Below are positions 12,836 to 63,609 of a stretch of 64,000 bases of DNA, one piece after another. A program made the translations under genes and the position numbers. The stretch's first letter is position 1. Every line of letters begins with the position of its first letter. Below the pieces are notes generated by a model. It was not told the DNA's origin, made no database searches, and saw only the letters and a program-made list of their open reading frames with translations. The stretch comes from Minisyncoccota bacterium (GTDB lineage: Bacteria; Patescibacteriota; Minisyncoccia; Phycocordibacterales; UBA9973): contig JBAZYS010000003.1 in assembly GCA_041659205.1 (NCBI GenBank), positions 3,266 to 67,265 of the forward strand, in the 5' to 3' direction.

Positions 12836-12838
12836 TTT

Positions 12839-16000: not shown

Positions 16001-16026
16001 GTTCCCGGAAGTGAGTTTTTAGATTG

Positions 16027-16293
16027 TTAAATTTTCGACTCGTTTTTTATATACTCTATAATTCTTCTTCTAAACATTCTTCTTCCTGTGCTTGTTTTTA
16101 AATACTTTTCGCGACGTTTAGCATCATTTTCGTTTAAACAAGCTTCGTAATATATCAATTTCCATGGTATATATCTTTTAGTCGAAAAATTTAACCCTTG
16201 ATTATGTTCTTTCAACCTACGCTTAAGATCTTTTGTATAACCAAAGTATAACTCATTATATGTTTTACTTTCTAAACAATAAATATAGAACAT
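16027..16293 (-). CDS. GIY-YIG nuclease-superfamily small protein (YhbQ/UPF0213-like)
   Basis: 88 aa; FYIYCLE...LYFGYTKDLKRRLKEHN is the classic GIY-YIG signature. Confidence 0.7.
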   Translation of the reverse strand: MFYIYCLESKTYNELYFGYTKDLKRRLKEHNQGLNFSTKRYIPWKLIYYEACLNENDAKRREKYLKTSTGRRMFRRRIIEYIKNESKI

Positions 16294-16320
16294 AATTTAT
16301 CTAAAAATCTACTTCCGGGT

Positions 16321-17193: not shown

Positions 17194-17202
17194 AAAGAAA
17201 AA

Positions 17203-18723: not shown

Positions 18724-18747
18724 TTCGGACGCAGGGCGTCCAAAACG

Positions 18748-20418
18748 CTAGTAAACCTCTTTTTGATAGCATTCTGTACAATACATTATCGGAGCAACAT
18801 CCTCGGTCAAATTTGTGTGAGTTTCTTTCCCACAATTAGAGCATTTACGAACAAAAAACTTAAATGATCCCCGACGGCGAATACGGTCATGATGTCTGCA
18901 GTAAAAACATTGACGTGGAATTGGCAATACCATCTTTTTATAAAAAATATATTCTTGTTCGGTAATTTTATAATTTCTTTCGCAAGAAGTACATTTTAAT
19001 ATTTCATGTATGATTGAATCATCTATATCTTTAATATGATCTGGGATATTTTCAGATAATAGTGTTTCTTTGCCTTTAGTTGTTTGAATGTCATCTTCCC
19101 ATCGGAAACCTTGTATAAGTGCTTCATTTTTAGTTAAAGGCAAATTATCTTGAGCGATTGTTTCATTATAAGCAAAAGGTGCAATATTTGGTGGCATCAT
19201 TAAACCATGAATTCCAAGCATTATTAATTCATCTATTATGTGTTTTTTTAGCTCTTCGTATTCATCTTTTGAATATTCTTTATTAAAGATAGAATAACGT
19301 CCATTCCTTAAAGCATCGCATCCTATGCAATCGTGACAATTTCTTATTTCAAATGAATATAAAATATTACTACAATTTTCAGGCCAATAAGAACCTATCA
19401 CGTTGCTACAGTATCCAGTAGCAACCACTTCAAGCAATAATTCTGATTGAGTTCCATAGCCGATAGTTCCCAGAGAATCCTTTATGTTTTTAGAGGAAAA
19501 AAGATACCTTGAATTTTCCCCTTTTGAAACTTCGAATGAATTATAAACGTTCTTGCACTCCGTCAAATAGTCTCCTATCGAATTTACCGTCTTTAGATTA
19601 TTATTTTCTCTTCTTGGAAGAGTTTTAGAAAATTCAATAAACTTCTTTTTTGCTTCTTCAGTTTTTTTATAACTCCCTTTTATCTCCTGAATTCTTTTTT
19701 GATATTCATCAGCACTTAGTTGTTCATTAAAATAACAATTGCTTTTATTTCTTAAATTTACACAACCAAAACAGTTTGTAAGCCCACTACCATTCAAGAT
19801 AAAAGATGAGTCTACGCAACTCGTAACATTTTGACTCCATAATACGCTAGCAGATTCTTGAACATTTATGCATTCATAACAGCGTTCAAAATTAACTCCA
19901 AAATATATATCTGAGGAATCCAACCCTTTTTTAACACCCCTTGAATAGAGGAGGTCTTCTGATGGACTGGTATTAAAAACTAAGTAACAATTTCTACAAC
20001 CACCAGCCATATTAGTATATTCACTATTAATATTGGGTCCATCACCAGAAGAAATGCCTAAATTTATTTTAGGAACTTTAATTAAAAATTCCCCCATTTG
20101 GTCAAAAAAAGGGCGATTTTTATCATATTCCGTAGCATAATCTTTCGGGTCCCATTTTTCAGAGTAAAAACAGTCATAACAATATTTTTTGTATGATGAT
20201 TTTGGATTATACATTGTGATAATATGTTTCTGACATAAATCACATTTTTGCCCAGAATATAATGTGGTCTCGTTTCTCCACATTGCACGCATCTTAAAAC
20301 GACAATCAGGACAAACTTTCGGCACTGGTACTTTCATTCTTTCGTAAAATGAAAAATCATCCATTTCTAAGGTGAAATCCTGTTTGCAATTCTGACAATT
20401 TCTCGTTTCATTTCGCAT
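18748..20418 (-). CDS. Cysteine-rich multi-zinc-ribbon protein, paralog B
   Basis: 556 aa; same architecture as paralog A (CQNCKQDF...FYERMKVPVP..CPDCR; internal Y.IFNKEYSKDEY; C-terminal YCTECYQKEVY). Confidence 0.7.
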   Translation of the reverse strand: MRNETRNCQNCKQDFTLEMDDFSFYERMKVPVPKVCPDCRFKMRAMWRNETTLYSGQKCDLCQKHIITMYNPKSSYKKYCYDCFYSEKWDPKDYATEYDKNRPFFDQMGEFLIKVPKINLGISSGDGPNINSEYTNMAGGCRNCYLVFNTSPSEDLLYSRGVKKGLDSSDIYFGVNFERCYECINVQESASVLWSQNVTSCVDSSFILNGSGLTNCFGCVNLRNKSNCYFNEQLSADEYQKRIQEIKGSYKKTEEAKKKFIEFSKTLPRRENNNLKTVNSIGDYLTECKNVYNSFEVSKGENSRYLFSSKNIKDSLGTIGYGTQSELLLEVVATGYCSNVIGSYWPENCSNILYSFEIRNCHDCIGCDALRNGRYSIFNKEYSKDEYEELKKHIIDELIMLGIHGLMMPPNIAPFAYNETIAQDNLPLTKNEALIQGFRWEDDIQTTKGKETLLSENIPDHIKDIDDSIIHEILKCTSCERNYKITEQEYIFYKKMVLPIPRQCFYCRHHDRIRRRGSFKFFVRKCSNCGKETHTNLTEDVAPIMYCTECYQKEVY

Positions 20419-20419
20419 G

Positions 20420-22597
20420 TTATTCTAGAATTTTTCTTAATACATCTTCGGGCACCTCCTTTGTTGTTGGTTTTTGAGGTATTGGCATTGGAGTTGGTGT
20501 AGGAGTAGGAGTAGGTGTTGAAATTGGAGTTGAAATTGGGGCTGGAGTTGGAGTTTTTTGCGAAATCAAATCTTTTAATTTATTCATCTCGTCTACACCT
20601 GCAGAACGGTCATTACGAGGAATAAAACTCCCACCAGATGGACTGGCAAGTTTATTTTCTTCTTGCTTGATTTTATCTTTTAACGTATCGAGAGAAACGG
20701 GTTCAGGTGTAGGAATCTTAACTGGAATAGGAATTGGAGGTGAAATTACTGGACTTACCTCCTGATTTTGCAAAGTTTTATTCAAAACTTCTCTTAAGGC
20801 TGAATTATCCACTTTTTTAGGAATCTCAGCTTTAGTCTTAACAACTTTTACAGTAGGAACAAAAACTTTTTTAATCGTCCCAATTATTCCTGGTTTACCC
20901 GCCAAAAAGGAGGGCTTTGATACTGAAGAAACTTGCTTAAATGCTGGTATAGGAGGTTTCGGTACGAAAGCAGGTTTCGGTGTAGGTTTTTCTACTCTTT
21001 CTGGATATCTATTATTTTCTTCAACTTTTTTACCTTTTTGCTCAAATTCTATTCCTAAATCAGCTAATGGTTTAAAAAATTTAGATTCATCATAATTTAT
21101 TTGGTCTTGTCCTTTTTTTTCTACCTTTACCTCTCCAGATTTTATTTTTGCAATACATTCCTTACAATAGACTGCTCTACCTGGTTCTGGTTTAAACGGC
21201 ACAGTCTTCTCTAGTTTACAAAGTGAACAAATAACTGGAAATTTTTCCATACTTGAAGAAGAAGCGGATTCATTAAAACCTCCAAGTGACATTCCACTCC
21301 AATCATTAATTTCTCTCTCCACTACTCCTCTTGGCTTACAATAAAGAGCTCGAGAAGAGTTTATAACTGCATCTTCGATTTTCTTGTCACCAGACTTTAC
21401 CATTGGCGGAAGTGTCTTCGCAGAAAATGGTCTAGACGTCACACCATCAATCATTAATTTCAAATAAATTTTATAGTTCGGTAAATTTACAATATCTGAA
21501 GGAGTAAATTCTGGATCAAATTCTTTTTCCAAAAAGTCTGCATCGTCAGAACCGACACGAAAGACAATCATCGTACCCACGTTTCCGAAAACAGCATCTC
21601 GTACTGCAGAACTCTTGTCCACGACAAGCTGGGCTGTGTACTGGTGGGCCACAGTAAGGTTCAATCTGTATTTTCTAGCCTCAGACAAAATACCTGCAAA
21701 AGCATCCGTCACGAAATTTTGAAATTCGTCGACATATAGGTAAAAGTCCTTACGATGATCCTCAGGAATACGCACGCGCTCCATGGCGGCAAGCTGAATC
21801 TTGGTAATAATCATTCCACCCAAGAGGCCGGAATTGTCTTCACCAATGCGCCCCTTAGAAACGTTCACCAGAAAAATCTTCCCATCGTTCATAATGTCGA
21901 AAATATTGATAGTACTTAAAGATTGACCGACGACGTTGCGGATGATAGATGTAGAGAGAAATTGCCCAACTTTATTTTGAATCGGAGCAATTGCCTCATT
22001 TCTAAATTTATCTTGCCAAGCTTCGTATTCGTGAATCCAAAAAGCCTTGATAACTGGATCTTTTAAATTCGCAATTATTTTCTGACGATAATCTTTATCA
22101 ACTAGCATCCTAGGAATACCTAATAGTGTCGTTCCCGGAGTATCAAGCAAAGCTAGAATACAATTATTTAAAATATATTCCATTCGAGCACTCCAGGCAT
22201 TCGCCCAAATTTTAGTAAAAATTCCCATCAGTCCCGAAGCTACGAGATGCTTGTATTGAGGGTCAATAAGTTCAAGAACATTAAAACCTATATGATGTTC
22301 AGTGTCAGCTGGGTTGAAATAAACTACATCCTTAATGCGCTCTGGTGGAATAGAAGACAGAACTCCCTCAACGAGCTCTCCGTGCGGGTCAACTACGCAG
22401 ACCCCTTCGCCATTCTGGATGTTCTGAATAATCATGTTGAACATAAGCACAGATTTACCTGTACCTGACTTTCCGAGAATATAAACATGCTGGCGTCTAT
22501 CCTTGCGTTTTATGCCGAAGAGCTGATTTTTATCACGAAAAGTAGTAAGACCCAGATAGGTAACATCTTTATTTATAGGTATTTCTGGAAGTTCCAT
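20420..22597 (-). CDS. Soluble FtsK/HerA-superfamily ATPase, paralog 2, with C-terminal zinc ribbon and Pro/Thr-rich disordered tail
   Basis: 725 aa; Walker A YILGKSGTGKS, DPHGE, YLYVDEFQN, ARKYRLNLTVAHQYTAQL; then CSLCKLEK...P.P..AVYCKECIAK (a zinc ribbon resembling the Cys-rich proteins' C-terminus) and TPTPAPISTPISTPTPTPTP low-complexity. Confidence 0.65.
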   Translation of the reverse strand: MELPEIPINKDVTYLGLTTFRDKNQLFGIKRKDRRQHVYILGKSGTGKSVLMFNMIIQNIQNGEGVCVVDPHGELVEGVLSSIPPERIKDVVYFNPADTEHHIGFNVLELIDPQYKHLVASGLMGIFTKIWANAWSARMEYILNNCILALLDTPGTTLLGIPRMLVDKDYRQKIIANLKDPVIKAFWIHEYEAWQDKFRNEAIAPIQNKVGQFLSTSIIRNVVGQSLSTINIFDIMNDGKIFLVNVSKGRIGEDNSGLLGGMIITKIQLAAMERVRIPEDHRKDFYLYVDEFQNFVTDAFAGILSEARKYRLNLTVAHQYTAQLVVDKSSAVRDAVFGNVGTMIVFRVGSDDADFLEKEFDPEFTPSDIVNLPNYKIYLKLMIDGVTSRPFSAKTLPPMVKSGDKKIEDAVINSSRALYCKPRGVVEREINDWSGMSLGGFNESASSSSMEKFPVICSLCKLEKTVPFKPEPGRAVYCKECIAKIKSGEVKVEKKGQDQINYDESKFFKPLADLGIEFEQKGKKVEENNRYPERVEKPTPKPAFVPKPPIPAFKQVSSVSKPSFLAGKPGIIGTIKKVFVPTVKVVKTKAEIPKKVDNSALREVLNKTLQNQEVSPVISPPIPIPVKIPTPEPVSLDTLKDKIKQEENKLASPSGGSFIPRNDRSAGVDEMNKLKDLISQKTPTPAPISTPISTPTPTPTPTPMPIPQKPTTKEVPEDVLRKILE

Positions 22598-22636
22598 ACA
22601 TGTAAATTATACCTCGAAATCAGTTTTTTCCAAACC

Positions 22637-23599
22637 TTATTTGTCTTTGTAAATATCTCTTACTTGACCTGTATGTGGATCAAAAGCTCCCCTATTTTTA
22701 CTAAAAATATCAAATGCTGGATCCTTTTTCTTTACAAAAGAATCGACTAACTTAAAATCGTTCGGATGATCTTTCAAAAAACTTTCAGGATTTGTGAAAT
22801 ACTCTGCACAAATTTCAGCCCAGTATTCATGTGCTGCTCTTAATAATCCATCCCTTGTTCCGTTCAAATGTGGTAAATAATCAGAATTTATATCATCTTT
22901 ACCAAAAGCATCAGGAGCCATGAGCCTTTTATGAACTTCTAGCAATTGAGTTTGCCTTTCTAAAATATTTAAATTTATATCACTGTCCCAATCATTAGCA
23001 TGGGCAAATTCGTGCGCAATCGTAGTATTGTCTACTGGTATTGTGCCACCACTCAATTCTGGATTGGTGTATAAATAAACATTGCCTCCCTGAAAACCAC
23101 CAAGTTTACTATGCCCTCTTGAGGTTTCTTTAATAGAAGAAATAAATTTTATTTGTTTAATTTGTCCAGAAATCCATCCTTTAGGATAAGCTCCGTATTT
23201 TTCTGTGAATAAATACTTAGGTTCAACGGAAAAATTTTTTCCCTCAAACCCTTTTAGTTCAGGATCTTTTTTTTCTTCTTTGTTTTGAAAATATGCATTC
23301 TGGTCTCCTTCATTTATTTGACTCACAGCGCCATAACCAAAAATTTTTTTAATTTCTGTCTCGTTTGTTTCTTTTTGTTTCAATTGTTCTGGATTAAAAG
23401 AGGATGTGATATGTCTATTATATTCAATATCTTTATTTACAGATTTTACTGCTTCACCTGCAACAAAAAGAGCCCCGGCCGCAAGACCAACTTTACCAAT
23501 CTTCTTAAAACAAACCAAAGATTTACCGAATATATTTTCGGCCTGTTTTTGTGGATCTTCTTCTTTTTTATCAATAGATCTAGTTCCTTCAAGGTTCAT
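22637..23599 (-). CDS. Membrane-anchored putative zinc metallopeptidase (HExxH zincin)
   Basis: 320 aa; N-terminal TM (VGLAAGALFVAGEAV); HEFAH motif (TIAHEFAHANDWD) plus downstream AAHEYWAE; no closer family recognised. Confidence 0.45.
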   Translation of the reverse strand: MNLEGTRSIDKKEEDPQKQAENIFGKSLVCFKKIGKVGLAAGALFVAGEAVKSVNKDIEYNRHITSSFNPEQLKQKETNETEIKKIFGYGAVSQINEGDQNAYFQNKEEKKDPELKGFEGKNFSVEPKYLFTEKYGAYPKGWISGQIKQIKFISSIKETSRGHSKLGGFQGGNVYLYTNPELSGGTIPVDNTTIAHEFAHANDWDSDINLNILERQTQLLEVHKRLMAPDAFGKDDINSDYLPHLNGTRDGLLRAAHEYWAEICAEYFTNPESFLKDHPNDFKLVDSFVKKKDPAFDIFSKNRGAFDPHTGQVRDIYKDK

Positions 23600-23669: not shown

Positions 23670-25568
23670 TTAAACTTTTGGAGCTTCTTCTTCTCCTTCA
23701 GTTTTCTCTTTTACTTCCGCAGCTTGCTCTTCTGGAGCACTTGCTCCTGGAGCCTCTGCGCCGGCACCGGCCTTAGATACGGCTTCGCCAATCTTAGACA
23801 TCTCTGTTGAGAGTTCTTCGGTAGCTTTCTTTATCGCCTCACCGTCAGTACCATCTTTTACTCCACGGAGAGCAGTGATTTTTGCATTAACTTCATCTTT
23901 CAATTCTGCAGGAATTTTAGCTTCATTATCTTTCAATGTTTTCTCCGCAGTGTAGATAATCATTTCCGCTGTATTTTTTATATCAACAACTTCCTTTTTC
24001 TTTTTATCTTCTTCTGCATGAAGTTCAGCGTCAGCTTGCATTTTTTTAATTTCTTCGTCCTTAAGACCAGAACTTGCTTCAATCTTAATTGACTGACTTT
24101 TACCTGAAGCTTTATCCTTTGCAGTAACATTCAAGATCCCGTTCGCATCGACGTCGAAAGCGACTTCAATCTGTGGCATACCACGAGGTGCTGGTGGAAC
24201 TCCATCCAAGATAAATCGTCCTAGGGATTTATTGTCGGAAGCCATTGGGCGTTCACCTTGAACTATATGAATTTCAACAGAAGTCTGATTGTCCGCAGCC
24301 GTAGAAAATACTTGCGATTTTGAAGACGGAATAGTGGTATTTCTTTCAATTAATTTTGTTGCTACTCCTCCTAATGTCTCAATACCTAATGATAGAGGTA
24401 TAACATCAAGAAGAAGAACATCACGCACATCACCAGCGAGCACTCCTGCCTGCACTGCAGCACCGAGAGCCACAACTTCATCAGGATTGATGGACATATT
24501 TGGAGCCTTGCCGAAAAGAGTCTGCACCGCAGAAACTATCGCTGGCATTCTCGTCTGACCACCTACCATAATGATTTCATTGATGTCATTCATTTTAAAT
24601 GGTGAGGCGGCGAGAGCTCTCTTTGTAATTTCAATTGAGCGATCAATGTATTCCTTTGCAAGAGATTCGAGCATCGCCCGAGTCATTTTCAAAAGTAAGT
24701 GCTTTGGCCCTGATGCATCAGAAGTTATAAATGGAATATTTATTTCAGTTTCCATGGTTGTAGAAAGTTCGTGTTTCGCTTTTTCTGCTGCTTCTTTTAG
24801 TCTCTGATGAGCTAGAGGATCCTTAATAACATCAATCCCTGACTCCTTTTTGTATTCATCCGCGATCCAAGAAATAATTTTTCTATCGATGTCTCCTCCG
24901 CCCATGTGACTGTCTCCATCTGTAGACTTTACTTCTATGACATCATCACCTATCTCTAGAACAGACACGTCAAAAGTACCTCCACCGAAATCGTAGACGA
25001 CAATCTTTTCATTTTTCTTTTTATCGAAACCATAAGCGAGCGCTGCTGCAGTTGGTTCATTGATAATACGCTTCACATCGAGGCCAGCAATAGCTCCTGC
25101 ATCCTTAGTAGCTTTTCTTTGAGCATCGTTGAAATATGCGGGAACGGTAATGACAGCTTCAGTAATCTTTTCACCAAGCTTTGCCTCCACATCTGTTTTA
25201 ATTTTTTGCAAAATCATCGCAGAAATTTCTTCTGGACGATAAAATTTATCTGTCATTTTCACCTTTACTCCACCCCCATCCCCAGCTTCAATTTTAAATG
25301 AGGCTGTTTGTCTATCCTTCTGTACTTCTGGATCATCAAAACGATGCCCCATGAAGCGCTTCATTTCCGCAATCGTATTTTCTGGATTTGTGACTGCTTG
25401 CCTCTTCGCAAGTAAACCGACGATACGGTCACCATTTTTTGCAGTCGCCACCACAGAAGGGGTCGTGCGATTACCTTCGACATTTTCAATAATCTTTGGT
25501 GCGCCTCCTTCAATGAAAGCGACAGCCGAATTTGTTGTACCTAAATCTATTCCTATTATTTTGCTCAT
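23670..25568 (-). CDS. dnaK: Chaperone DnaK (Hsp70)
   Basis: 632 aa; [18 protein letters not shown], and a full NBD plus SBD. Confidence 0.95.
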
Positions 25569-26719: not shown

Positions 26720-28390
26720 TTAAGCCATATTTTGTTTATAACATTCTTCGCAAGCAATTTTTTGGTATTCCCATTCCGGTAAATAATATGCCTCAATGTC
26801 CTTTTTACAATAAAAACAAGAGTATGGATACGCCTGAAGAGCCGTCAAATACTTTAATTGATTTCTTGTTCGTACGTCAAAATGATATCGTGGAAGTGGG
26901 ATACTATTTTCTTTATAGAATATCAATTCATTTTGTGCAATATTAAAACGCCAATTAGATTTTGGGCAGATAAGTGCTTGATTAATAATAGAATCTGAAA
27001 CATCTTTTATATCGTCAGGTAATTCATTTGTTTGCATTCCTTCAATATTACTTTCATCAACATCTTCCCAATAACCACCCAGCCTTAAAATATCTTCTTT
27101 TTTTGTATCTCCAAAATACAAATAACTAGTAGAAAAATTAAATGATCCAGCGCTCATTGAATATGGCAAAAACTTTCCATATTCCCCATTTTTTTTCATA
27201 TTTGAAATAATTTTATTTTTCAAAATTTCATATTCCTCTTTACTATATTGCTTATTTAAAATACAATATTTCTTTTTCTTTATACCAACACAACCAAAAC
27301 AATATTCACATTCAGTACAAATGTCTAAATATTCGGAATATCTTGAAGAAGACCAAACACTGTATTTTTCTGCATAACCATACAGGCAACAACTACAATT
27401 TCCAGATAATTCAGTAAACCAGCAACCATCAGCGTCGATATTAGACTTTTCGTTAATGCCCCTAATGCAGTTATGACAATCTTCAGAATTGCTGATGGTG
27501 TTGCAATTGTGGCAATTTTTACAATCTAATAAATAATCTCCATCAGAACTATATATTTTAAAATTAAAATTTTCCCTATGAACAACTTCATTTTTTATTA
27601 TTTCATCAAAACGTTCTTTAAAAGATTGTATAGATTCATAAGATCCAAGATTAAATGATTTTAATTTTTCTTCATATTCTTCCTTGGTGTATTGCTTATT
27701 TTCTATGCAATATTGTTTATTACGTAGATTCCAACTCATGAAACAATTCTGGCAATTTCTACAATCATATAAAAAGCTTGATTCTATACAATCACGAGAA
27801 TGCTTTGAATAAAAAAGTTTATAAGAATGATGACAATCTGAGCAGTCAAAACTTTTTTCACAACTAAAACATATTGTCATATCTATAGAATTTTTTACAT
27901 AAAAACCTCTATATGAATAAAACAAATCTTCACATTGTTCCAACGAACGTGATAAATAACAATTTTTAGAATTCCAGACATCATCACACCAATCACATTT
28001 TATGTTTTTAGTACCATTCTGATGTGGATGAGGAACACGCTCTTGAAGATCTTGCAATTGTTTAAAAAATAGTTGATTCTCATTATATTCTACTCCATAA
28101 TCCATAGCGTCCCATTTATCGCTGTACCATTCCTTAGAAGTATAAATAGGATATCTATTTTTCTCTGGTAAAACTGTAATTAAGCCTTCTCCTGATAAAT
28201 CTGATTTCCCTTTACGAAATTTTCCAAACATCCAGAATGATAAATGTAATTTAACACGGCAAAAAAAACACAAAATGGGTAATTCAATATCAACTTTTTG
28301 ATATAAAGAAAATTCCTCTTCTGTAATTATGAAGTCTTTTTTACAATGTTCACAAATTCTATTCTCCTTTTTCTTTGAATTCATACACAT
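26720..28390 (-). CDS. Cysteine-rich multi-zinc-ribbon protein, paralog C
   Basis: 556 aa; CEHCKKDF...; internal duplicated module with YCIENKQYTKEEYEEKLK and YCILNKQYSKEEYEILKNK; overlaps the grpE stop by about 30 bp. Confidence 0.7.
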   Translation of the reverse strand: MCMNSKKKENRICEHCKKDFIITEEEFSLYQKVDIELPILCFFCRVKLHLSFWMFGKFRKGKSDLSGEGLITVLPEKNRYPIYTSKEWYSDKWDAMDYGVEYNENQLFFKQLQDLQERVPHPHQNGTKNIKCDWCDDVWNSKNCYLSRSLEQCEDLFYSYRGFYVKNSIDMTICFSCEKSFDCSDCHHSYKLFYSKHSRDCIESSFLYDCRNCQNCFMSWNLRNKQYCIENKQYTKEEYEEKLKSFNLGSYESIQSFKERFDEIIKNEVVHRENFNFKIYSSDGDYLLDCKNCHNCNTISNSEDCHNCIRGINEKSNIDADGCWFTELSGNCSCCLYGYAEKYSVWSSSRYSEYLDICTECEYCFGCVGIKKKKYCILNKQYSKEEYEILKNKIISNMKKNGEYGKFLPYSMSAGSFNFSTSYLYFGDTKKEDILRLGGYWEDVDESNIEGMQTNELPDDIKDVSDSIINQALICPKSNWRFNIAQNELIFYKENSIPLPRYHFDVRTRNQLKYLTALQAYPYSCFYCKKDIEAYYLPEWEYQKIACEECYKQNMA

Positions 28391-55990: not shown

Positions 55991-56062
55991 GGCCTGGTAG
56001 CCAAGTGGTAAGGCATTCCTCTGCAAAAGGAATATACGGCGGTTCGATTCCGCCCCAGGCCT
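55991..56062 (+). tRNA. tRNA-Cys (GCA)
   Basis: Acceptor GGCCTGG/CCAGGCC, anticodon loop cuGCAaa, T-loop GGTTCGATTCC, discriminator U. Confidence 0.85.
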
Positions 56063-56123
56063 CAAGAGATTAAGTTTTTAATTTCTTTTTGTTCTTTATA
56101 TGCTAGAATGTTTTAGTATAATT

Positions 56124-56205
56124 GCCCGGATGGCGGAATTGGTATACGCGCACGACTTAAAATCGTGTCTCGTAAGGGATGTGGGTTCGACTCCCACTCC
56201 GGGCA
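56124..56205 (+). tRNA. tRNA-Leu (TAA), long variable arm
   Basis: Acceptor GCCCGGA/TCCGGGC, anticodon loop cuUAAaa, variable arm, T-loop GGGTTCGACTCCC. Confidence 0.85.
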
Positions 56206-56414
56206 CCGCACGGAAATAAGCAAATTTATTTGCTTATGTGTGGGAGTCGAAAGGATTTTCGTTATTGAGCGGAGCGAAATCGAAAATCACCTGGCTATGT
56301 AATAGCCGACTCCTCCGGGCACACAACTTAATAATTAATTTTGCGCCCTTGGCTGTTTTGGTAGGTCGTTAGATTAGGTAATTAAGTTATGTCGAAGTAG
56401 AATAAAAAATAAAT

Positions 56415-56487
56415 GCGTCCATAGCTCAGCTGGTAGAGCAGATCCCTCTTAAGGATAAGGTCGGAGGTTCGATCCCTCCTGGACGCA
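56415..56487 (+). tRNA. tRNA-Lys (CTT)
   Basis: Acceptor GCGTCCA/TGGACGC, D-arm GCTCAGCTGGTAGAGC, anticodon loop cuCUUaa, T-loop GGTTCGATCC. Confidence 0.8.
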
Positions 56488-56512
56488 CAGCATTAAAATA
56501 TAATGCAAATTT

Positions 56513-56594
56513 GCTGGGATGGCGGAATTGGTATACGCGCTAGTCTTAGGAACTAGTGGGGCAACCCTTGGGAGTTCGAGTCTCCCTCCCAGCA
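56513..56594 (+). tRNA. tRNA-Leu (TAG), long variable arm
   Basis: Acceptor GCTGGGA/TCCCAGC, anticodon loop cuUAGga, variable arm, T-loop GGAGTTCGAGTCTCC. Confidence 0.85.
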
Positions 56595-56612
56595 CATAAT
56601 AGTTGAGTTAAA

Positions 56613-56659: not shown

Positions 56660-57439
56660 GTGCTATACTTCTCTTATATGAATACAACAAAAAACAATTC
56701 AATAGTTTTCGGCTTGAAAATGTTGTCTATTTTGGCATTTAGCCTATTAGTTATACCTGCGACAGCTTCAGCTACCCTGGCTTTTACCCCTACCCCAAGT
56801 GAAAATCCAGCACCAATGGTTAACTCAATAAGCCCAGATTCTAAAAACAGAAATGACAACGTTAATACGATAACAATTACAGGAAGTGGATTTATCTCAA
56901 ATTCTGTAGCTAGGGTAAATGGACAAGTACGTCCTACTGTCTTTATTGATGCTTCTCATCTCTCACTTCAGTTAATTGGGAATGATGCATATAATCCTGA
57001 CGGACTTTATATTAATGTCTTTAATGAATTGCCAGGAGGAGGGTACTCAAATGCTGCTTTCTTCAAAACAAATATGATTGTCCCTGCAACTACAAATACA
57101 GGAAATACAAATGGGAACACCAGCAACAATAACTATGGTAATGCAAACACAAACGGAAATACAAATAACACTAATTCTTCTGCATCAAAAAATACCAAAA
57201 ACAGTAACACGAGTACTTCTACAAACAACAACCAAACAAAAAGTTCGACTACTACTGATGCAAACTCAAACTATAGCAACCTAGCATCTAATGCAATATT
57301 TGGAACAAATGGTTTTATGCCAACTGGCCTAATACAATGGATATTGTTTGCGATAATCGTATTACTACTTATTATTTTAGTTAGAAAAATCTTTGGTGGT
57401 AAAAAGAATTACGACGAAGCACCTATGAAGCACGCGTAA
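56660..57439 (+). CDS. Cell-surface protein with IPT/TIG-like domain, Asn/Thr-rich linker and C-terminal TM anchor
   Basis: Signal peptide; ISPDS..ITITGSGF...VNG block; long N/T low-complexity stretch; C-terminal hydrophobic helix plus basic tail. Confidence 0.45.
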   Translation: MLYFSYMNTTKNNSIVFGLKMLSILAFSLLVIPATASATLAFTPTPSENPAPMVNSISPDSKNRNDNVNTITITGSGFISNSVARVNGQVRPTVFIDASHLSLQLIGNDAYNPDGLYINVFNELPGGGYSNAAFFKTNMIVPATTNTGNTNGNTSNNNYGNANTNGNTNNTNSSASKNTKNSNTSTSTNNNQTKSSTTTDANSNYSNLASNAIFGTNGFMPTGLIQWILFAIIVLLLIILVRKIFGGKKNYDEAPMKHA

Positions 57440-57472: not shown

Positions 57473-57518
57473 GTCAGCCCCGCAAGGGGTTGACTTTTCT
57501 GTTATTGTATGATACAAT
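57473..57518 (+). promoter_or_regulatory. Terminator hairpin (gtcagcccc-gcaa-ggggttgac) overlapping a near-consensus promoter (TTGACT, 17 bp spacer, TACAAT) for the downstream GC-rich genes
   Basis: TTGACT at 57490-57495; TACAAT at 57513-57518. Confidence 0.5.
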
Positions 57519-57615
57519 ATATACGACTAGGCTCTCTGACAAAAGAATAGAAACCAAACAACTCGCACCCACAATAGTGCCCAACGCGCCTTTGAGCGTA
57601 AAGAAAGGTAAGACA

Positions 57616-58503
57616 ATGTCTAACCAAAAAAGTTTAACAATGCCAAAGACACAAACTCCAAACGGAGTTATAATCAGCCTCTTAGGATTAGCAATCCTAG
57701 CATGGCTCGTTTTGTACTTGTTGATCTTTGGAGCATTCTTCAGCGCAATCATCGTGTTTTTCATCATGGGGATGACCACGAAAGTTTATACTGATACTGT
57801 CCAAGGATTCGAAGCCCACATCCTTCTCAACAACCTAACACAAGAACAACGTGCAGTGTTCCAGGGAATGAATTTTAAATTACCCTGGGAAACATTCCAA
57901 CAAAAAATCGATCTTCGGGTCGAGCTCAATGAAGTCCTCAAGGACGAAACCTACGCAGCCAAAGACACATTGATGGTAGTGAAGTATGTTTACACCATTC
58001 GGCCAGACGTGTCAGGAGATAACCCAGGGGAAAAAATAGTCCTTTTTGCGTCGTTCGAACCTGACGCAATCAAGATGGCTGGTAGAGCAATTTTCAGTAG
58101 TACCCTATCTGATCATTATGCTACTAAAAACGGTACCCAGCTCCTTAATAAGGCTGAAATCACCAAAGAACTTTTTGGGCCTAATAGTAATAAGTTAGAA
58201 AAATTTGATAAGGAACACGGGTCAGTAGCAGAGGTTGTATTGGAAGACTCTGACTTCGACGAGGCTACACAGAAGTCAAGAGACATGTTGTCTCGAGCTA
58301 CTTCCTTTGACGCAACAGTTAAAAAACTGACGTCTAAAGGAAGAGTAAATCCAGCAGAGGCTGTACGCGTAGCAAAACTCATGGCCTTTGACGACGTTAA
58401 GGAGTTTAACCTTAACGTCACAGGGCTCGAAAATCTACAATCAGCGAACTTCGCTGGAGGGCTCTCAATTCCCTCCACTGATAAGAAAGGACCCAAGAAA
58501 TGA
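57616..58503 (+). CDS. Membrane protein with tentative SPFH/band-7-like domain (GC-rich, likely foreign)
   Basis: Start placed at MSNQKS (RBS-like aaagaaaggtaag upstream); 1-2 TM then a domain with VKYVYTIRPD-type SPFH-like strand; the track ORF starts at 57490 inside the promoter. Confidence 0.35.
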   Translation: MSNQKSLTMPKTQTPNGVIISLLGLAILAWLVLYLLIFGAFFSAIIVFFIMGMTTKVYTDTVQGFEAHILLNNLTQEQRAVFQGMNFKLPWETFQQKIDLRVELNEVLKDETYAAKDTLMVVKYVYTIRPDVSGDNPGEKIVLFASFEPDAIKMAGRAIFSSTLSDHYATKNGTQLLNKAEITKELFGPNSNKLEKFDKEHGSVAEVVLEDSDFDEATQKSRDMLSRATSFDATVKKLTSKGRVNPAEAVRVAKLMAFDDVKEFNLNVTGLENLQSANFAGGLSIPSTDKKGPKK

Positions 58504-58970
58504 GCCACACACCCACGGGTACTACCACACCCCCAAAAAGCACGAACCTACTTAAATGGGTCTTCTTGACCATCGCACTAATTCTCTTCATTCTCTATGT
58601 GAAGAATGAATTCAGTGGAACAAAGAAAAAGGCAGAGGCAACCGCTGCTGAAGTGGCAAAAAATGCAGCACAAGCTGTATCCCAGGCATTGACAGCTACT
58701 CCTCCTCCCCAAGGGCCCAAAAAGAAATTAATCAGCTTCAACGATGGGCCAATCGTTTCATTCACCTACTACGGCGGACCACTCATCTGGAATGCCATAG
58801 GGGGGAAAGTCGACTTTGTCGACGAATATGGAGTGAAGTGGAGTCACACCCCTGGAAAGCTGGAAGTCGGAGTTATGAACCAACAGCTTCACAGAGGCGT
58901 GGTCTTCGCCAGCAAACAAGCTAACTCGAAAGCAACGGGTGTGGAAATCACCCAAGTCTGGAAGGACTAG
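58500..58970 (+). CDS. Hypothetical membrane-anchored protein (GC-rich)
   Basis: 156 aa; N-terminal TM; translationally coupled (ATGA overlap) to the upstream gene. Confidence 0.4.
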   Translation: MSHTPTGTTTPPKSTNLLKWVFLTIALILFILYVKNEFSGTKKKAEATAAEVAKNAAQAVSQALTATPPPQGPKKKLISFNDGPIVSFTYYGGPLIWNAIGGKVDFVDEYGVKWSHTPGKLEVGVMNQQLHRGVVFASKQANSKATGVEITQVWKD

Positions 58971-59000
58971 ACTATTCATCGCGCTAGTCACGCAAAGCAA

Positions 59001-59030
59001 AAGGCGCCCCACTCGTGGGACGCCTTTTTT
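59001..59030 (+). terminator. Rho-independent terminator after the GC-rich gene pair
   Basis: aggcgccccactcgtgggacgcct plus tttttt. Confidence 0.65.
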
Positions 59031-59063: not shown

Positions 59064-59399
59064 CTAGGGTGGAGACAAATGAACAGAATTATCCCCTGTT
59101 GAATTTATTTGGACATCACTAATATTCAGAGTTTTTAAAATAATCCCAAGGATAGTCCAAACTCCCATCATAATAGTAATACCAACAATTCCCCAAATCA
59201 TATGCTGCTTACCTGTCGTCTTTTTCTCTTCATTTTCTTGATTTGAAAGAAATTCAAATATACCATAAAGAAAATAAACAACAGCTAGAGCAAATAGTAA
59301 TCCGATAAGTGGATTTATAATCATCGTATCAACATTCGCGATAAACCCATTTAAGGAAGTTGATGCAGCATAGGCTATCTTTGTAGAAAATAAATCCAT
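59064..59399 (-). CDS. VirB2/TrbC-like pilin family protein, paralog 1
   Basis: 111 aa; hydrophobic helix - charged loop (ENEEKKTTGKQ) - hydrophobic helix (MIWGIVGITIMMGVWTILGII). Confidence 0.5.
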   Translation of the reverse strand: MDLFSTKIAYAASTSLNGFIANVDTMIINPLIGLLFALAVVYFLYGIFEFLSNQENEEKKTTGKQHMIWGIVGITIMMGVWTILGIILKTLNISDVQINSTGDNSVHLSPP

Positions 59400-59409
59400 A
59401 CTAAAAATA

Positions 59410-59796
59410 TTAATTTATTGTCGGCAAAGTAATTGTACCAGAGTTACTGACATCAAAAGTCTTGGTCAAAATACCTACAAGACCCCACATAGCAATAATG
59501 ACAGCCAAACCAATGATACCGAAGATTATGCGGTCTCTTCCTGCTTTTTTAGCTTCCTCGTCACTTGAGATAACATAGGTAATAACTCCCCAAACGAAGT
59601 AAACTACGCCTAGAGCAATCAAAACTGGCACAACTGCATTAAGGATTTGACCAATTTTACATAGTACTGTAAACAATGTTCCTTGCCCTGCATTAGCCGC
59701 ACAATTACTTCCACCTGTTGTAGTGACCTGTGCCAAAGCAACAAGAGGAGAAAAACCTAAAACAGAACCAGACAACACAATTAATTTCTTTTTCAT
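59410..59796 (-). CDS. VirB2/TrbC-like pilin family protein, paralog 2
   Basis: 128 aa; signal peptide ...VALAQV; helix-EEAKKAGRDR-helix (IIFGIIGLAVIIAMWGLVGIL). Confidence 0.5.
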   Translation of the reverse strand: MKKKLIVLSGSVLGFSPLVALAQVTTTGGSNCAANAGQGTLFTVLCKIGQILNAVVPVLIALGVVYFVWGVITYVISSDEEAKKAGRDRIIFGIIGLAVIIAMWGLVGILTKTFDVSNSGTITLPTIN

Positions 59797-59873
59797 AATT
59801 ATTTCTTCCTAACTTCTAATAATAAACGCGACCTAATAATGCTAATAATATCCTTGTATTATACTCCTTGCTA

Positions 59874-60926
59874 TTATCCTGGGCAAGTTCCGTCTGCTCT
59901 CCTGATAAACATAGGATTAGGACAAGGGCCCGAAGAAACACAAGTTTGAGTATTAAAATTATATTGAGTGCCTGAAGGACAAGAACTAGGACCTCCACTT
60001 CCTCCAGAGGGACACATTAGAGGGTTTGATACATATGTTTTACCATCTGGACAAAGGGTTGGACCCCCACCTATTGGACACAAAAATTGATTCATAACAA
60101 CTGTTCCATCAGAACAAGTAAAAGAACCACCTCCGCTCGTACTATCTGGAACACAAGCAGTACCATCATTGTGCGTACCCGATGGACAAGGACCAACAAA
60201 GCCATCTCCAGTATTGCCTCCTCCATCTGTAGAAGAACTCGATCCAGGAGGGCGTACTTGTGGAAGGATATTTCCATTAATACCAAAGGTGCTGGTAAGT
60301 ATACCCACTAGACCCCAAACAGAAAGCATCACTGCAAGAGCAATAATACCCCAAACCATAAACTGTTTACCTTGGGCTCTCTTCGCTTCTTCGTCTGCAT
60401 TGATTATAAAAAAGTTAACTGCTCCCCAAACGAACATAACTGTCGCAAGAGCAAAAATAAGAGGAATTATTGAATTATTTATTATACAAGTCACATAACT
60501 GAGTACCCCTTGGAAATTGGTCCCCATCGTACAAGTAGAGCTTGCTCCAGTTAAAGGTGCAAGCGACGGAGCAGTAACTCCACTTAAACCAAAAGTATTA
60601 ACTATAATATTTACAAGCCCCCATAATCCTACGATAACTGCAAAACCGATAAGGCCATAAATCATTCTATCTTTACCTGTTTTCTTCGCTTCTTCCCCGT
60701 CTGCAATGACGTATTGAACGACACCCCAAACGAAATACACTACTCCAAGAGAAACAAGAACAGGAATTATTGAGTTAAGGATTTCTTTCATTTGACATAT
60801 TAATTTACCTATGCCAGTGAGAGAATCACACGTCGAAGCAGCAGCAAAAGAAATAATTGGAATTAGAGCTATAAAAGAAAAAATTGATATAAACTTATAA
60901 ACAGATTTTAATGATTTCTTATTCAT
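59874..60926 (-). CDS. Multi-module pilin-like protein (two tandem VirB2-like modules) with Cys/Gly/Ser-rich C-terminal domain
   Basis: 350 aa; two copies of ...VYFVWG..-[A]DGEEAKKTGKDR / ADEEAKRAQGKQ - .WG(L/I)I..AV...WGLV. modules, then 14 Cys in a G/S/P/T-rich tail. Confidence 0.5.
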   Translation of the reverse strand: MNKKSLKSVYKFISIFSFIALIPIISFAAASTCDSLTGIGKLICQMKEILNSIIPVLVSLGVVYFVWGVVQYVIADGEEAKKTGKDRMIYGLIGFAVIVGLWGLVNIIVNTFGLSGVTAPSLAPLTGASSTCTMGTNFQGVLSYVTCIINNSIIPLIFALATVMFVWGAVNFFIINADEEAKRAQGKQFMVWGIIALAVMLSVWGLVGILTSTFGINGNILPQVRPPGSSSSTDGGGNTGDGFVGPCPSGTHNDGTACVPDSTSGGGSFTCSDGTVVMNQFLCPIGGGPTLCPDGKTYVSNPLMCPSGGSGGPSSCPSGTQYNFNTQTCVSSGPCPNPMFIRRADGTCPG

Positions 60927-60935
60927 ATATTTTAT

Positions 60936-61307
60936 TTATAACGCTAGCACTGTAGCTGATATCATCTTTGCTATAGCCCATGAACCTAATAATATTGCTG
61001 CCCCTATCAATGTATACATAAGTGCTTCTTTTGCTTTGCTTAGCTTCTCAGAATTACCCCTTGCAAAAACAAAAAGAAAACCACAATAAATAATTGCGAG
61101 CGCCACTACTGGTATACCTATTTTCAACATGCCTTCAAGGATTTTCTGAATAAGCCCTGGGACCGAAGTTATACTTGGAATTGGATTTTCAATCTTACCA
61201 CCACGAGCCTCTGTTCCACTTCCTTGTGCATAAAGTGTAAAAATAGGAATAATAAATAAATAAACTGCTAAAGTAATTTTGCCCCAGTTTTTCTTAAAAA
61301 ATTTCAT
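60936..61307 (-). CDS. VirB2/TrbC-like pilin family protein, paralog 4
   Basis: 123 aa; signal peptide ...LYAQGSGT; helix-NSEKLSKAKE-helix. Confidence 0.5.
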   Translation of the reverse strand: MKFFKKNWGKITLAVYLFIIPIFTLYAQGSGTEARGGKIENPIPSITSVPGLIQKILEGMLKIGIPVVALAIIYCGFLFVFARGNSEKLSKAKEALMYTLIGAAILLGSWAIAKMISATVLAL

Positions 61308-61354
61308 GATTATATTATACTATAATGTTAATTATAAACTAATTTAATATCTAA

Positions 61355-61792
61355 TTAAGGTGAAAGTGGATTAAAACCAATCCAGCTACCCTGATAACCT
61401 AAAATTGATAATACTGTTCTAACAATAAGAAAAGCAGCTATCGCTATAATAAGGCCAATAACAACATCTGAAAAAATTGCTTTCGCTTTTGTCCTAGCAT
61501 GAGCTACTTCCCCTCCTGCTGAAACCATTAGAAAGCCAGCATAAGCAAACATTATGGCTGCGATAGGAATAACCATATCGAAAAGAATAAACTTAATAAC
61601 TTTATTTACTAGGGCCATAAGAGCGTTGAAGTCGCATGGTTGAGCAATTTTACCACTACTATCTGGTGTATTGTTGCAAGGAACCAAGCCTCCTCCTGTA
61701 GATGTACCTGAACCCTGTGCAAAAGACAAAGCTGGGATAATGAGTATTAAAAATACTAAAACGGAGATTAAGATTTTTTTTGTATTTTTCAT
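61355..61792 (-). CDS. VirB2/TrbC-like pilin family protein, paralog 5
   Basis: 145 aa; signal peptide ...LSFAQGSGT; helix-GEVAHARTKAKA-helix. Confidence 0.5.
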   Translation of the reverse strand: MKNTKKILISVLVFLILIIPALSFAQGSGTSTGGGLVPCNNTPDSSGKIAQPCDFNALMALVNKVIKFILFDMVIPIAAIMFAYAGFLMVSAGGEVAHARTKAKAIFSDVVIGLIIAIAAFLIVRTVLSILGYQGSWIGFNPLSP

Positions 61793-61796
61793 ATAA

Positions 61797-63086
61797 TTAC
61801 TTAAATAATAAAAGACTTATTTTTGAGTTCGCATCTTTAACGGCATCATTCACTGATAAATTACCAGACAATACTGAATCAATCATACCACTAAAAATGT
61901 TATTGGTATCTTTTGGCGATGGGTCAAGCCAGCTTCTGGCGTACAATGCGGAATTATAAAAAATAGGAGAATAAGCATCATCGGGCTTTATTGCAAGTAA
62001 ATCACGACGAGCTGGTGCTCCTCCTGTAGCTGTAGCAAATTTTGATGCAAAATCGCTCGTCGCGAGTAAACTCGCTGCCGTAAAAGCAGTAGTAAAATTC
62101 TTCGACGAAGCAGAAATAGCAATGCCGGTGACTCGAGCGCCTGTTACCTTAGAAGGAGAACTTCTAATCTGTGGAACACCTGAGATGAAAAAATTCTGAT
62201 TGGGGTTTCTATTTACCAAAGACTGAAGCTCAGAAGCATAACCAAAATAAAAAGCTAAATCTTCCCTAGAAAAAGCATCATTAGAATTTGGGAAAGATTT
62301 ATTCCACGAATATAAAGTATTATTGGGATCCGCAAAATCTGTATAAAACTTTAAAATTGAAGGAAGATTGTAATTTCCTATTGACGCGTCTAATGTTGAA
62401 TTTAGAATCCCATCTTTTTCTTTTGTAATAGGATTACCAGCCTGCATAAAAAGAGTCGCAAGAATATCTTTAGCATGAACTATATTAGAAGAGTGACCTA
62501 ATGCTACACCGCTTTTTATTATTTTATTTGTATTGTCTTTTTTAGTAAGTGTGGGAACCATTTTGGTCATCTCATCCCAATAGGCAGGTGGATAAACGAA
62601 TCCACTCGCATCAAGCATGCTTCTGTTGTAATACATCATAAGAGGATCAATAGAAACAGGAAAAGCGTAAACACCCTTCCCTGCTAAAAATACCTCCCCT
62701 GCTCCCGCAAAAACATTTTTGAACGTAGAGAGCGGATAGCTAGTATAGGGAATAGCAAAAATTTTATTAGAATAATGAAGAATCAAATTATCTGGTAGAA
62801 AAAATAAGTCTGGCCCTGCTCCCGCAGCCAATGCTTCAAGTAAATCTTGGTCAAAAGTATCAGGAGATTTTTGTACGTAAGAAACAACAAAAGTGGGATT
62901 CGCATCATTGAAACTCTTCATTGCTGTAGCTATCGTTGCACCCGGAACTGTACCCCACAAAACCACCGTACCTAAACTACCGGTACTATTTTTACCGAGA
63001 GGGATAGCGCCAGAAAAAACTAACATACCAAAAACAGCAGCAGCGATAAATACAATTAAAATGATTAGTTGAAAATTTCCTTTCAT
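61797..63086 (-). CDS. Extracellular solute-binding protein (ABC transporter SBP, family 1-like), membrane-anchored
   Basis: 429 aa; N-terminal anchor helix then an SBP_bac_1-like fold (VVLWGTVP..., AAGAGPDLF). Confidence 0.55.
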   Translation of the reverse strand: MKGNFQLIILIVFIAAAVFGMLVFSGAIPLGKNSTGSLGTVVLWGTVPGATIATAMKSFNDANPTFVVSYVQKSPDTFDQDLLEALAAGAGPDLFFLPDNLILHYSNKIFAIPYTSYPLSTFKNVFAGAGEVFLAGKGVYAFPVSIDPLMMYYNRSMLDASGFVYPPAYWDEMTKMVPTLTKKDNTNKIIKSGVALGHSSNIVHAKDILATLFMQAGNPITKEKDGILNSTLDASIGNYNLPSILKFYTDFADPNNTLYSWNKSFPNSNDAFSREDLAFYFGYASELQSLVNRNPNQNFFISGVPQIRSSPSKVTGARVTGIAISASSKNFTTAFTAASLLATSDFASKFATATGGAPARRDLLAIKPDDAYSPIFYNSALYARSWLDPSPKDTNNIFSGMIDSVLSGNLSVNDAVKDANSKISLLLFK

Positions 63087-63093
63087 GGATTAT

Positions 63094-63609
63094 TTATTCC
63101 TTAACTAATATCATACCATAATGATGACCTCCTGCATCAATATCTCTATCAAAAACAAAGCCATTTTTCTCGAACATTAAACGAGCTTCATCTTTCGGAA
63201 TTATATTCGTGCCCCCCATGACTGATGATTCAGACCAATCAATGAGAAGTACCCTTCCTTTTATTTTAAGTATTCTTTTTACCTCTTCGATAAATTTTCC
63301 CTTATCTTCTACCTGAAAAAGTATATTTGAAGCAATTACCGCATCAACTACGCCATCCCCTATTTTCGTTCCACCCAATTTCTCCACATCTCCTAGAATA
63401 ATTTCAACATTATTTAGCTTTAACTCAAGTACTCTACTTTTTATAGTATCTAGGAAATCCTTCTGAAGTTCTACTGCATAGACTTTCCCCCTTCCGACTA
63501 TCTGACCTGCTGCCAAAGTATAAAAACCAGTCCCCGCACCCAAATCTGCTACGATATTATCTTCCCTTAATCCAAAAGCTTTTAAATTTTTTAATGGGTC
63601 AGTGAACAT
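63094..63609 (-). CDS. Class I SAM-dependent methyltransferase
   Basis: 171 aa; motif I VADLGAGTG, motif II KVYAVEL, post-I acidic residue. Confidence 0.7.
   Translation of the reverse strand: MFTDPLKNLKAFGLREDNIVADLGAGTGFYTLAAGQIVGRGKVYAVELQKDFLDTIKSRVLELKLNNVEIILGDVEKLGGTKIGDGVVDAVIASNILFQVEDKGKFIEEVKRILKIKGRVLLIDWSESSVMGGTNIIPKDEARLMFEKNGFVFDRDIDAGGHHYGMILVKE

Follow-up and report, generated by a model that had tools for sequence, protein, structure and literature searches.

A conserved array of five T4SS_pilin-family genes, with a fused double pilin carrying a Cys-loop tail, in a Paceibacterota bacterium

What do five consecutive pilin-like genes in the chromosome of a Patescibacterium encode, and what might their products build? 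The genes occupy positions 59064-61792 on the minus strand of a 64,000-nucleotide stretch of DNA (hereafter, the window) from a Minisyncoccota bacterium (GenBank assembly GCA_041659205.1, contig JBAZYS010000003.1, positions 3,266 to 67,265). An earlier note on this DNA had read them as VirB2/TrbC-like pilin paralogs belonging to a diversified set of a type IV secretion system (T4SS). Patescibacteria account for a large share of bacterial diversity and apparently live on other cells; a T4SS together with a pilin array is essential in the one species tested. Our analysis supports the assignment of the array proteins to the VirB2/TrbC-related T4SS_pilin family typical of CPR (candidate phyla radiation) bacteria, or Patescibacteria. 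Furthermore, we found that each of the five genes represents an old ortholog group of its own, tied to one array position, with the order kept in more than 80 species, and that fusions of two or three modules are common among the pilins of this clade.

All five minus-strand genes that the earlier note had placed here are present in the open reading frame (ORF) list, in the order G5-G4-G3-G2-G1, and the gaps between them from G5 to G1 are 47, 9, 77, and 10 nt (Table 1). Hydropathy and charge maps gave every protein the proposed architecture, that is, two hydrophobic helices joined by a roughly 12-residue loop with many K/R as well as D/E residues; there are six such modules across the array, two of them in G3. 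The members share 16 to 35% mutual identity and form two sequence classes. G5 and G4 are TrbC-like and have the leader end AQGSGT in common, and G3, G2, and G1 follow the pattern '...VVYFVWGV...EEAKK.GKDR...WGLV...'. The leader ends AQGSGT and AQV, which had been given for the whole cluster, were recovered in G5 (..SFAQGSGT), G4 (..LYAQGSGT), and G2 (..ALAQV), whereas the leader of G3 ends in SFAAAS and G1 has no N-terminal hydrophobic signal segment on these maps. Thus, a signal-peptide-like N terminus followed by two-helix modules is found in four of the five proteins, and G1 retains the two helices without the leader. Among the G1 orthologs, a crude rule picked out signal-peptide-like N termini in 21 of 80, and the N terminus of their consensus, MDLFSTKIAYA, is conserved.

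Searches with profile hidden Markov models (HMMs) carry the family assignment and agree with the VirB2/TrbC-like identity proposed earlier. G1, G2, G3, and G4 scored 35.6, 37.6, 63.2 (over two stretches), and 32.6 bits, respectively, with PF18895 'T4SS_pilin', all above its gathering cut-off of 26.6 bits and thus not a chance resemblance, and the two stretches in G3 confirm that a single gene fuses two pilin modules. The TrbC/VirB2 model PF04956 (cut-off, 27.9 bits) was passed by G4 with 35.9 bits; G1 reached 12.3 bits, and G2 and G3 gave nothing. G5 scored 21.9 bits with each of the two models, under both cut-offs, and all 18 of 18 G5 orthologs matched PF18895 at E values of ≤1e-3 (best, 3.1e-10), with TrbC matched in 7 of the 18. 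Besides, G3 (43.6 bits) exceeded the 40-bit cut-off of NCBIfam NF045849 (Mbov_0395 family pilin-like conjugal transfer protein), for which G1 and G2 scored 31 to 34 bits. Searches of the PDB by sequence and profile (a double-pilin profile, a six-module profile, and G4) returned nothing meaningful, and a tblastn search of G4 against 72,556 plasmids gave no match. The pilin classification itself is already in databases and literature: existing NCBI names are 'pilin' for G2 and G3 (the latter identical to MFA5841072.1, 'pilin'), 'TrbC/VirB2 family protein' for G4, and 'hypothetical' for G1 and G5. GenBank has these exact proteins on an 85-kb contig of a 'Candidatus Paceibacterota' metagenome-assembled genome, the one with MFA5841070-74 (locus tags WC847_02260-02280).

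Two other identities were considered and rejected. The five proteins have no class III signal peptide (G↓F/M-T-L-x-E), carry two helices per module, and gave no type IV pilus match in Pfam, which speaks against a type IV pilin (PilA-like) reading. As for anchoring by sortase, neither a transmembrane segment nor a charged tail comes after the conserved motifs 'LPQV.PPG' and 'LPTIN'.

The conservation of the array was read from a scan of relatives with one genome per species (218 species genomes with a relative; 80 loci taken), in which the architecture was determined with a purpose-built module HMM; neighbor and order counts refer to 82 related loci. The same co-directional order was found in all 82, namely, pilin, pilin, sometimes an extra pilin, multi-module pilin, pilin, and pilin, with a third upstream pilin in 19 loci, a third downstream pilin in 7, and 6 to 8 modules per array. 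Over the five positions, the best cross-genome match lay in the same array position in 83/83, 79/82, 78/80, 70/81, and 66/81 cases (78/80 for G1), and the median best identity of the position-specific orthologs across species is 64 to 75%. Because the best matches fall in the same position and the order is fixed, the five genes are old ortholog groups and therefore not recently diversified paralogs, so that the 'diversified' set of the earlier note gives way to position-specific orthology. A five-member set conserved in this manner implies that the structure is heteromeric and its members have fixed roles, as opposed to antigenic variation. In an exhaustive search, G3 returned 7,598 cluster representatives at E values of ≤1e-3 and 50 at ≤1e-30; among the best 148 representatives, two modules were counted in 44 and three in 10. 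In five loci (L065, L071, L079, L081, and L082), the first match to the pilin HMM is a much larger ORF (380 to 966 aa), which may be a fusion to another domain or an ORF-calling artifact.

The C-terminal tail of the double pilin G3 is rich in G/S/P/T, as the earlier note had stated (71 of 125 residues), although its length is about 122 to 125 aa (from about residue 226 to 350) instead of 110 aa, and the 14 Cys attributed to it are those of the whole protein, 10 of which lie in the tail. These are spaced as five loops (Cys pairs 247-258, 271-283, 292-305, 316-329, and 335-348). When the Cys pattern was tallied over 61 double pilins homologous to G3, two Cys were present in the N-terminal exterior segment in 46 of 61 (Cys33 conserved in 87% and Cys44 in 82%) and two in the inter-module linker in 60 of 61 (Cys132 in 97%, with its partner at column 143 or 147, 49% each). 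The tail holds an even number of Cys in all 61, and the helices and loops hold none in 59. Similarly, the Cys count is even in 82 of 82 G2 orthologs, and a Cys39/Cys53 pair precedes helix 1 in G5.

Since the inter-helix loops are charged and the paired Cys are confined to predicted outward segments, we infer that the modules of the array have both ends outside and loops inside, with disulfide bonds in the exterior segments, a picture that is internally consistent. Cleavage by signal peptidase in the exterior inter-module linker of G3, which spans roughly 26 residues, was also considered and rejected, as the 'TGA↓SS' site lies about 20 residues past the helix end, presumably too far from the membrane. 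The earlier note had suggested that the tail could be a tip adhesin; a tail borne by a pilin module should occur along the length of the filament and not at the tip alone. In the AlphaFold2 (AF2) model of G3, with a predicted local distance difference test score (pLDDT) of 66.6, a leader helix and helices 39-74, 78-111, 138-175, and 181-214 have pLDDT values of 75 to 82, and the tail is disordered and of low confidence except for a beta-hairpin at residues 320-331. The AF2 model of G4 consists of a signal-peptide helix and a helical hairpin (residues 49-81 and 86-122) with a pLDDT of 73 to 89 in the hairpin.

Beyond the ILPQV.PPG motif, most G3 orthologs have no tail or one loop such as 'GPCPNGSIIRSDGTCP', and a long Cys-loop tail is rare in this clade; that of G3 is the longest among 83 species orthologs, with 118 aa past the domain versus 37 aa for the runner-up. 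One relative (P0002), whose core is 91% identical to that of G3, lacks exactly loop 1, and another with an 85% identical core has almost none of the tail in common. Thus, the tail evolves as entire loops are gained and lost, at a much higher rate than the core. A search of the tail alone against 5.8 billion proteins gave no match, which is probably in part a low-complexity or E value artifact since P0002 clearly shares the tail, and Tandem Repeats Finder detected no DNA-level repeat underlying the five loops in G3.

TABLE 1 Positions in the window of the array genes, the parts of G3, and the other features discussed
Feature	Position	Strand	Description
G5, first pilin gene of the array	61355-61792	-	145 aa; divergent TrbC-like class; ORF
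G4, second pilin	60936-61307	-	123 aa; most TrbC/VirB2-like member
G3, double pilin	59874-60926	-	350 aa; signal peptide, module 1, module 2, and Cys-loop tail
G3 module 1	60546-60839	-	About residues 30-127; exterior Cys33-Cys44 segment, helix, loop GEEAKKTGKDR, helix
G3 module 2	60243-60545	-	About residues 128-228; exterior linker Cys132-Cys147, helix, loop DEEAKRAQGKQ, helix, conserved ILPQV.PPG motif
G3 C-terminal tail	59877-60242	-	Residues 229-350; G/S/P/T-rich; five Cys-x(10-12)-Cys loops
G2, fourth pilin	59410-59796	-	128 aa; Cys32/Cys46 pair; loop DEEAKKAGRDR
G1, last pilin	59064-59399	-	111 aa; no signal peptide, no Cys
Intrinsic-terminator-like hairpin after G1	58993-59030	-	8-bp GC-rich stem GGCGTCCC/GGGGCGCC, 6-nt loop, then TTTTGCTTTG; read from the sequence
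Orphan solute-binding protein (SBP_bac_1, MalE-like, N-terminal membrane anchor)	61797-63086	-	PF01547, 62.5 bits; best PDB match 5ci5, 1e-8
Class I S-adenosylmethionine (SAM) methyltransferase	63094-63609	-	Pfam Methyltransf_31/11/25; 7 nt upstream of the solute-binding protein gene
Soluble VirD4/TraD/HerA-superfamily P-loop ATPase	17203-18723	-	Lies between dnaJ and dnaK
Soluble VirD4/TraD/HerA-superfamily P-loop ATPase with CxxC-x17-CxxC zinc finger	20420-22597	-	Lies between dnaJ and dnaK

As to what the five proteins build, it is rather probable that a T4SS whose genes lie elsewhere in the genome polymerizes them into a pilus or a short tube of heteromeric composition. Sec would insert G2 to G5 and YidC would insert G1, in each case with both ends outside and the loop inside; the leaders would be removed after membrane insertion, and exterior disulfides would form. 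A T4SS of the VirB4/TrsD/VirB3 type would then extract the pilins and polymerize them, and the resulting pilus or tube would serve in contact or exchange between the bacterium and a host cell. In this assembly, the double pilin would represent a covalently linked pair of neighboring subunits, and its tail, a flexible Gly/Ser/Pro stalk bearing five small disulfide loops, would decorate the filament exterior as a fast-evolving, probably host-binding surface. A natural fusion of two or three VirB2 modules shows which subunit ends must adjoin in the assembly and offers a handle for modeling or cryo-electron microscopy. Conjugative pili have a caliber of 8.6 nm. By cryo-electron tomography, an 8.6-nm-wide tube was seen to extend from another Patescibacterium into its host, for which the authors make no link to pilins (PMC11880426), and this tube is circumstantial support for a pilin filament.

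Several results weigh against such a pilus. No T4SS pilus has been demonstrated in any Patescibacterium or other monoderm, and a 2025 review describes these proteins as the only VirB2-like pilins in monoderm T4SSs, with the pilus yet unseen (PMC12857230). When four position-specific alignments were compared by hhalign with seven annotated VirB2/TrbC proteins, the similarity was weak or nil overall: the G5 type (P = 0.001; probability, 21%; 63 collinear columns) and the G4 type (P = 0.008; probability, 5%; about 60 collinear columns) matched VirB2 weakly, and the G2 and G1 types gave nothing significant. A Foldseek search of the PDB with the AF2 models of G3 and G4 found no match at an E value of ≤0.001, the top matches being generic helical hairpins, for example, the c subunit of ATP synthase and the type III secretion needle; Foldseek cannot discriminate here because a two-helix hairpin is too simple.

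The genomic setting points in the same direction. VirB4, VirB3, and VirB6 were all missing among the ORFs scanned in the window, and the ±10 kb around the array in the 82 related loci contain no VirB4-like ORF either, the only large Walker-A ORFs there being IF2 and ClpB. What ties the array to a T4SS is family membership and published sister-genome data, not the window. Among five sister genomes with the same array, four are VirB4 positive and one is negative, and two sister genomes have VirB3/TrsD/VirB4 at a distant locus with one adjacent PF18895 pilin; in those two, hundreds of genes separate VirB3/TrsD/VirB4 from a VirB2/PrgF/VirB2 tandem set that bears the flag 'not near VirB4' (PMC12102498, Tables S1 and S3). 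We infer that this tandem set is the same array. Since a separate pilin lies beside VirB4 in the sister genomes, the array may have a different purpose.

The earlier note had also taken the ATPases at 17 to 22 kb as VirD4/VirB4-like and as pointing to a T4SS, a claim that is weak, for they are soluble VirD4/HerA-superfamily proteins in a window with no VirB4 among the ORFs scanned. Their scores are 27 to 41 bits with Pfam TrwB_AAD_bind (TrwB/TraG type), just above the Pfam cut-off, and 44 to 54 bits with NCBIfam TraD/VirD4 models, against cut-offs of 250 to 650; they also match HerA and 'mad8' defense models. No transmembrane segments were found in them, and this lack of an anchor, the NCBIfam scores far under the cut-offs, and the dnaJ-dnaK setting led us to reject them as VirD4 coupling proteins, leaving weak evidence for a T4SS linked to the array. 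According to a 2025 survey, there are 5,713 such proteins resembling type IV coupling proteins, mostly away from virB4, and a homolog is non-essential in Southlakia epibionticum (PMC12102498). The arrangement of the pair resembles the paired 't4cp2' matches reported far from virB4. The two genes (in 13680-23599, minus strand) are flanked by dnaJ (16321-17193) and dnaK (23670-25568) and interleaved with ORFs at 18748-20418 (556 aa) and 22637-23599 (320 aa, with Walker A). An ORF at 14297-16000 (567 aa) has the same CxxC-x17-CxxC zinc finger as the second ATPase, and a VirB6 reading of a seven-transmembrane-segment protein at 13680-14321 was rejected for want of profile support. A further Walker-A ORF of 556 aa, between grpE and dnaK (26720-28390, minus strand), had no Pfam, NCBIfam, PADLOC, or PDB match.

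Because monoderm T4SSs are generally without pili (PMC12102498; PMC12857230), the array proteins might instead stay in the membrane as components of a T4SS translocon of the monoderm type, comparable to PrgF, TrsC, and the pilin-like Mycoplasma Mbov_0395 proteins, in which case there would be no filament and the tail would project into the cell wall. This would accord with the matches of G1 to G3 to NF045849, a family of Mycoplasma integrative and conjugative elements (ICEs), of which that of G3 is above the cut-off, and with a sister-genome gene in the likely copy of the array that matched the FATA_PrgF profile. We nevertheless regard a translocon as unlikely, since G4 scores above the cut-off of the TrbC/VirB2 pilin model, translocon genes do not accompany the array, and a surface structure would more easily account for five separately conserved kinds of subunit, exterior disulfide pairs, and a long tail on the outside.

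A different partner is suggested by the genes directly upstream of the array. An orphan solute-binding protein (SBP) gene sits 4 nt upstream of G5, and the methyltransferase, SBP, and pilin genes are packed with gaps of 4 to 77 nt up to the hairpin terminator. The locus is best explained as a chromosomal operon of a Paceibacterota (Nomurabacteria-like) bacterium. The SBP gene is immediately upstream of the first pilin in 80 of 82 loci, and a class I methyltransferase and gyrA are found upstream of the array in 77 and 73 of them, respectively. The methyltransferase-SBP-pilin unit also occurs in three distant loci, where the central pilin has three modules and is 32 to 37% identical to G3; in one of these triple-pilin loci (L091), the SBP and the first pilin genes overlap by 4 nt. 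The SBP is a remote MalE-like binding protein of the sugar type. Besides, it is more conserved than the pilins (69 to 81% identity among the top 120 matches), and neither an ABC ATPase signature in the window or related loci nor a conserved permease nearby was found. The adjacency may, however, be due in part to the strong collinearity that the entire region (gyrA ... IF2, ClpB) shows in the lineage; in related loci, a surface protein, RbfA, and IF2 lie downstream of the array on the opposite strand.

Taken together with the lack of linkage to virB4, the constant company of the SBP would fit a T4SS-independent envelope device that captures a sugar-like compound of the host, with VirB2-like modules co-opted as a channel or conduit. 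We consider this quite improbable: the gene order may simply have been inherited, no precedent is known for VirB2-like proteins at work without VirB4, ABC partners may be encoded elsewhere in the genome, and a module number varying from array to array argues against a fixed channel stoichiometry. A broader idea joins the SBP to the pilus reading and is likewise very doubtful, if slightly less so. The methyltransferase/SBP/five-pilin operon would then encode a distinct and so far undescribed surface organelle of Paceibacteria, a heteromeric VirB2-type tube of five fixed kinds of subunit, one of them a fused double or triple pilin, with a rapidly evolving disulfide-loop exterior for host recognition and SBP-aided uptake of host compounds, genetically uncoupled from a VirB4 locus with its own pilin. 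In any case, the hypervariable disulfide-loop tail and the co-encoded orphan SBP are testable candidates for host recognition and nutrient capture.

Lastly, recent diversification of the five genes as paralogs for antigenic or host-range variation, as in the VirB2 of Bartonella and Anaplasma, is suggested by the low identity between members and the high variability of the G3 tail between close relatives and was raised for Patescibacteria arrays (PMC12102498), but it is largely refuted and highly improbable, because each position has its own ortholog in the same order across the 82 loci, there is no sign of recent duplication and no DNA repeat, and the variation is concentrated in one tail and not in the gene set.

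The hairpin after G1 also has an A-run upstream, which would make it a bidirectional terminator; an automatic terminator scan did not list it at 58993-59030, and a promoter scan of the locus did no better than on shuffled sequence. Two genes for membrane-anchored proteins of 337 and 156 aa (57490-58970, plus strand) converge on this terminator, the larger with an L001 counterpart annotated Band_7/SPFH; the region just downstream of the array is variable, because these genes are present in 10 and 2 of the 82 loci, respectively. In L001, a gene with a Fic/RhuM domain (11907-12893) and an rve integrase gene (14707-15654) lie directly downstream of the array, and this side of the array appears to be an insertion hotspot. 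Farther downstream in the window, a gene at 56660-57439 (plus strand) encodes a surface protein whose parts are a signal peptide, a repeat domain of the 'choice-of-anchor Z' type (NF058597, 67 bits), a stalk rich in Asn/Thr/Ser, and a transmembrane anchor at the C terminus; it is kept downstream of the array on the opposite strand in 66 of the 82 loci. Four tRNA genes (Cys-GCA, Leu-TAA, Lys-CTT, and Leu-TAG; 55991-56595, plus strand) are located between rbfA and this gene. The rest of the window holds the housekeeping genes of a small genome (aminoacyl-tRNA synthetases, DnaB, DnaK/DnaJ/GrpE, ClpB, IF2, and GyrA). At 11810-13702 (minus strand), an agmatine deiminase-type PAD_porph gene adjoins a carbon-nitrogen hydrolase gene, and the pair likely forms an agmatine-to-putrescine pathway; an energy pathway of the arginine/agmatine type is of interest in Patescibacteria.

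How does the array compare with known systems? The core finding, namely, that a CPR bacterium carries VirB2-like pilin genes in tandem, has already been published. Wang et al. (2023) described a series of essential predicted pilins within the T4SS cluster of S. epibionticum (PMC10633639), and Quiñonero-Coronel et al. (2025), who applied PF18895 and PF04956 to 3,035 genomes of Patescibacteria, reported 441 arrays of 2 to 11 VirB2-like genes, in tandem or one gene apart, with about 25% identity within an array (PMC12102498). With five consecutive genes at 16 to 35% identity, the present array falls within that definition. It resembles the arrays of S. epibionticum ML1 (SEML1_0006-0019) and Nanosynbacter lyticus TM7x (the 'Sec-secreted array') in its tandem small PF18895/VirB2-like genes with signal peptides, its chromosomal location in an ultrasmall monoderm, and its similar structure despite low identity. 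It differs in that the S. epibionticum array lies inside the T4SS cluster, whereas the array described here is never within 10 kb of virB4 and stands behind a methyltransferase and an orphan SBP gene, and in that its central gene is a fused two-module (elsewhere three-module) pilin, with a five-loop Cys tail in the window copy. Neither fused pilins nor an SBP were mentioned in the papers that we read; judged by the papers searched, the five-ortholog architecture, the multi-module pilin, the Cys tail varying by whole loops, and the SBP-linked but virB4-unlinked location are apparently undescribed.

Gram-negative VirB2/TrbC proteins (Agrobacterium VirB2 and RP4 TrbC; PF04956) are likewise propilins of about 100 to 145 aa with a signal peptide, two hydrophobic helices, and a short charged loop. 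However, bona fide virB2 lies between virB1 and virB3, unlike the pilin genes of the window, the classical pilins examined have neither fused modules nor Cys tails, and the host of the window is a monoderm without an outer-membrane core complex. In Bartonella and Anaplasma phagocytophilum, several VirB2 genes also stand side by side (PMC12102498), but these copies are read as variable paralogs for immune evasion, whereas the positions in the window are old conserved orthologs. The Mbov_0395 family of Mycoplasma ICEs (NF045849) is similar in being a small two-helix protein of the conjugation system of a wall-less monoderm; it is an 80-position, single-module model from a mobile element, whereas the genes in the window are chromosomal, arrayed, and partly fused. 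In type IV pilins (e.g., Pseudomonas PilA), a C-terminal exterior loop closed by two Cys contributes to receptor binding. The tail of G3 is comparable to this disulfide loop by functional analogy only, since the families are unrelated and the tail of the double pilin carries five loops in series.

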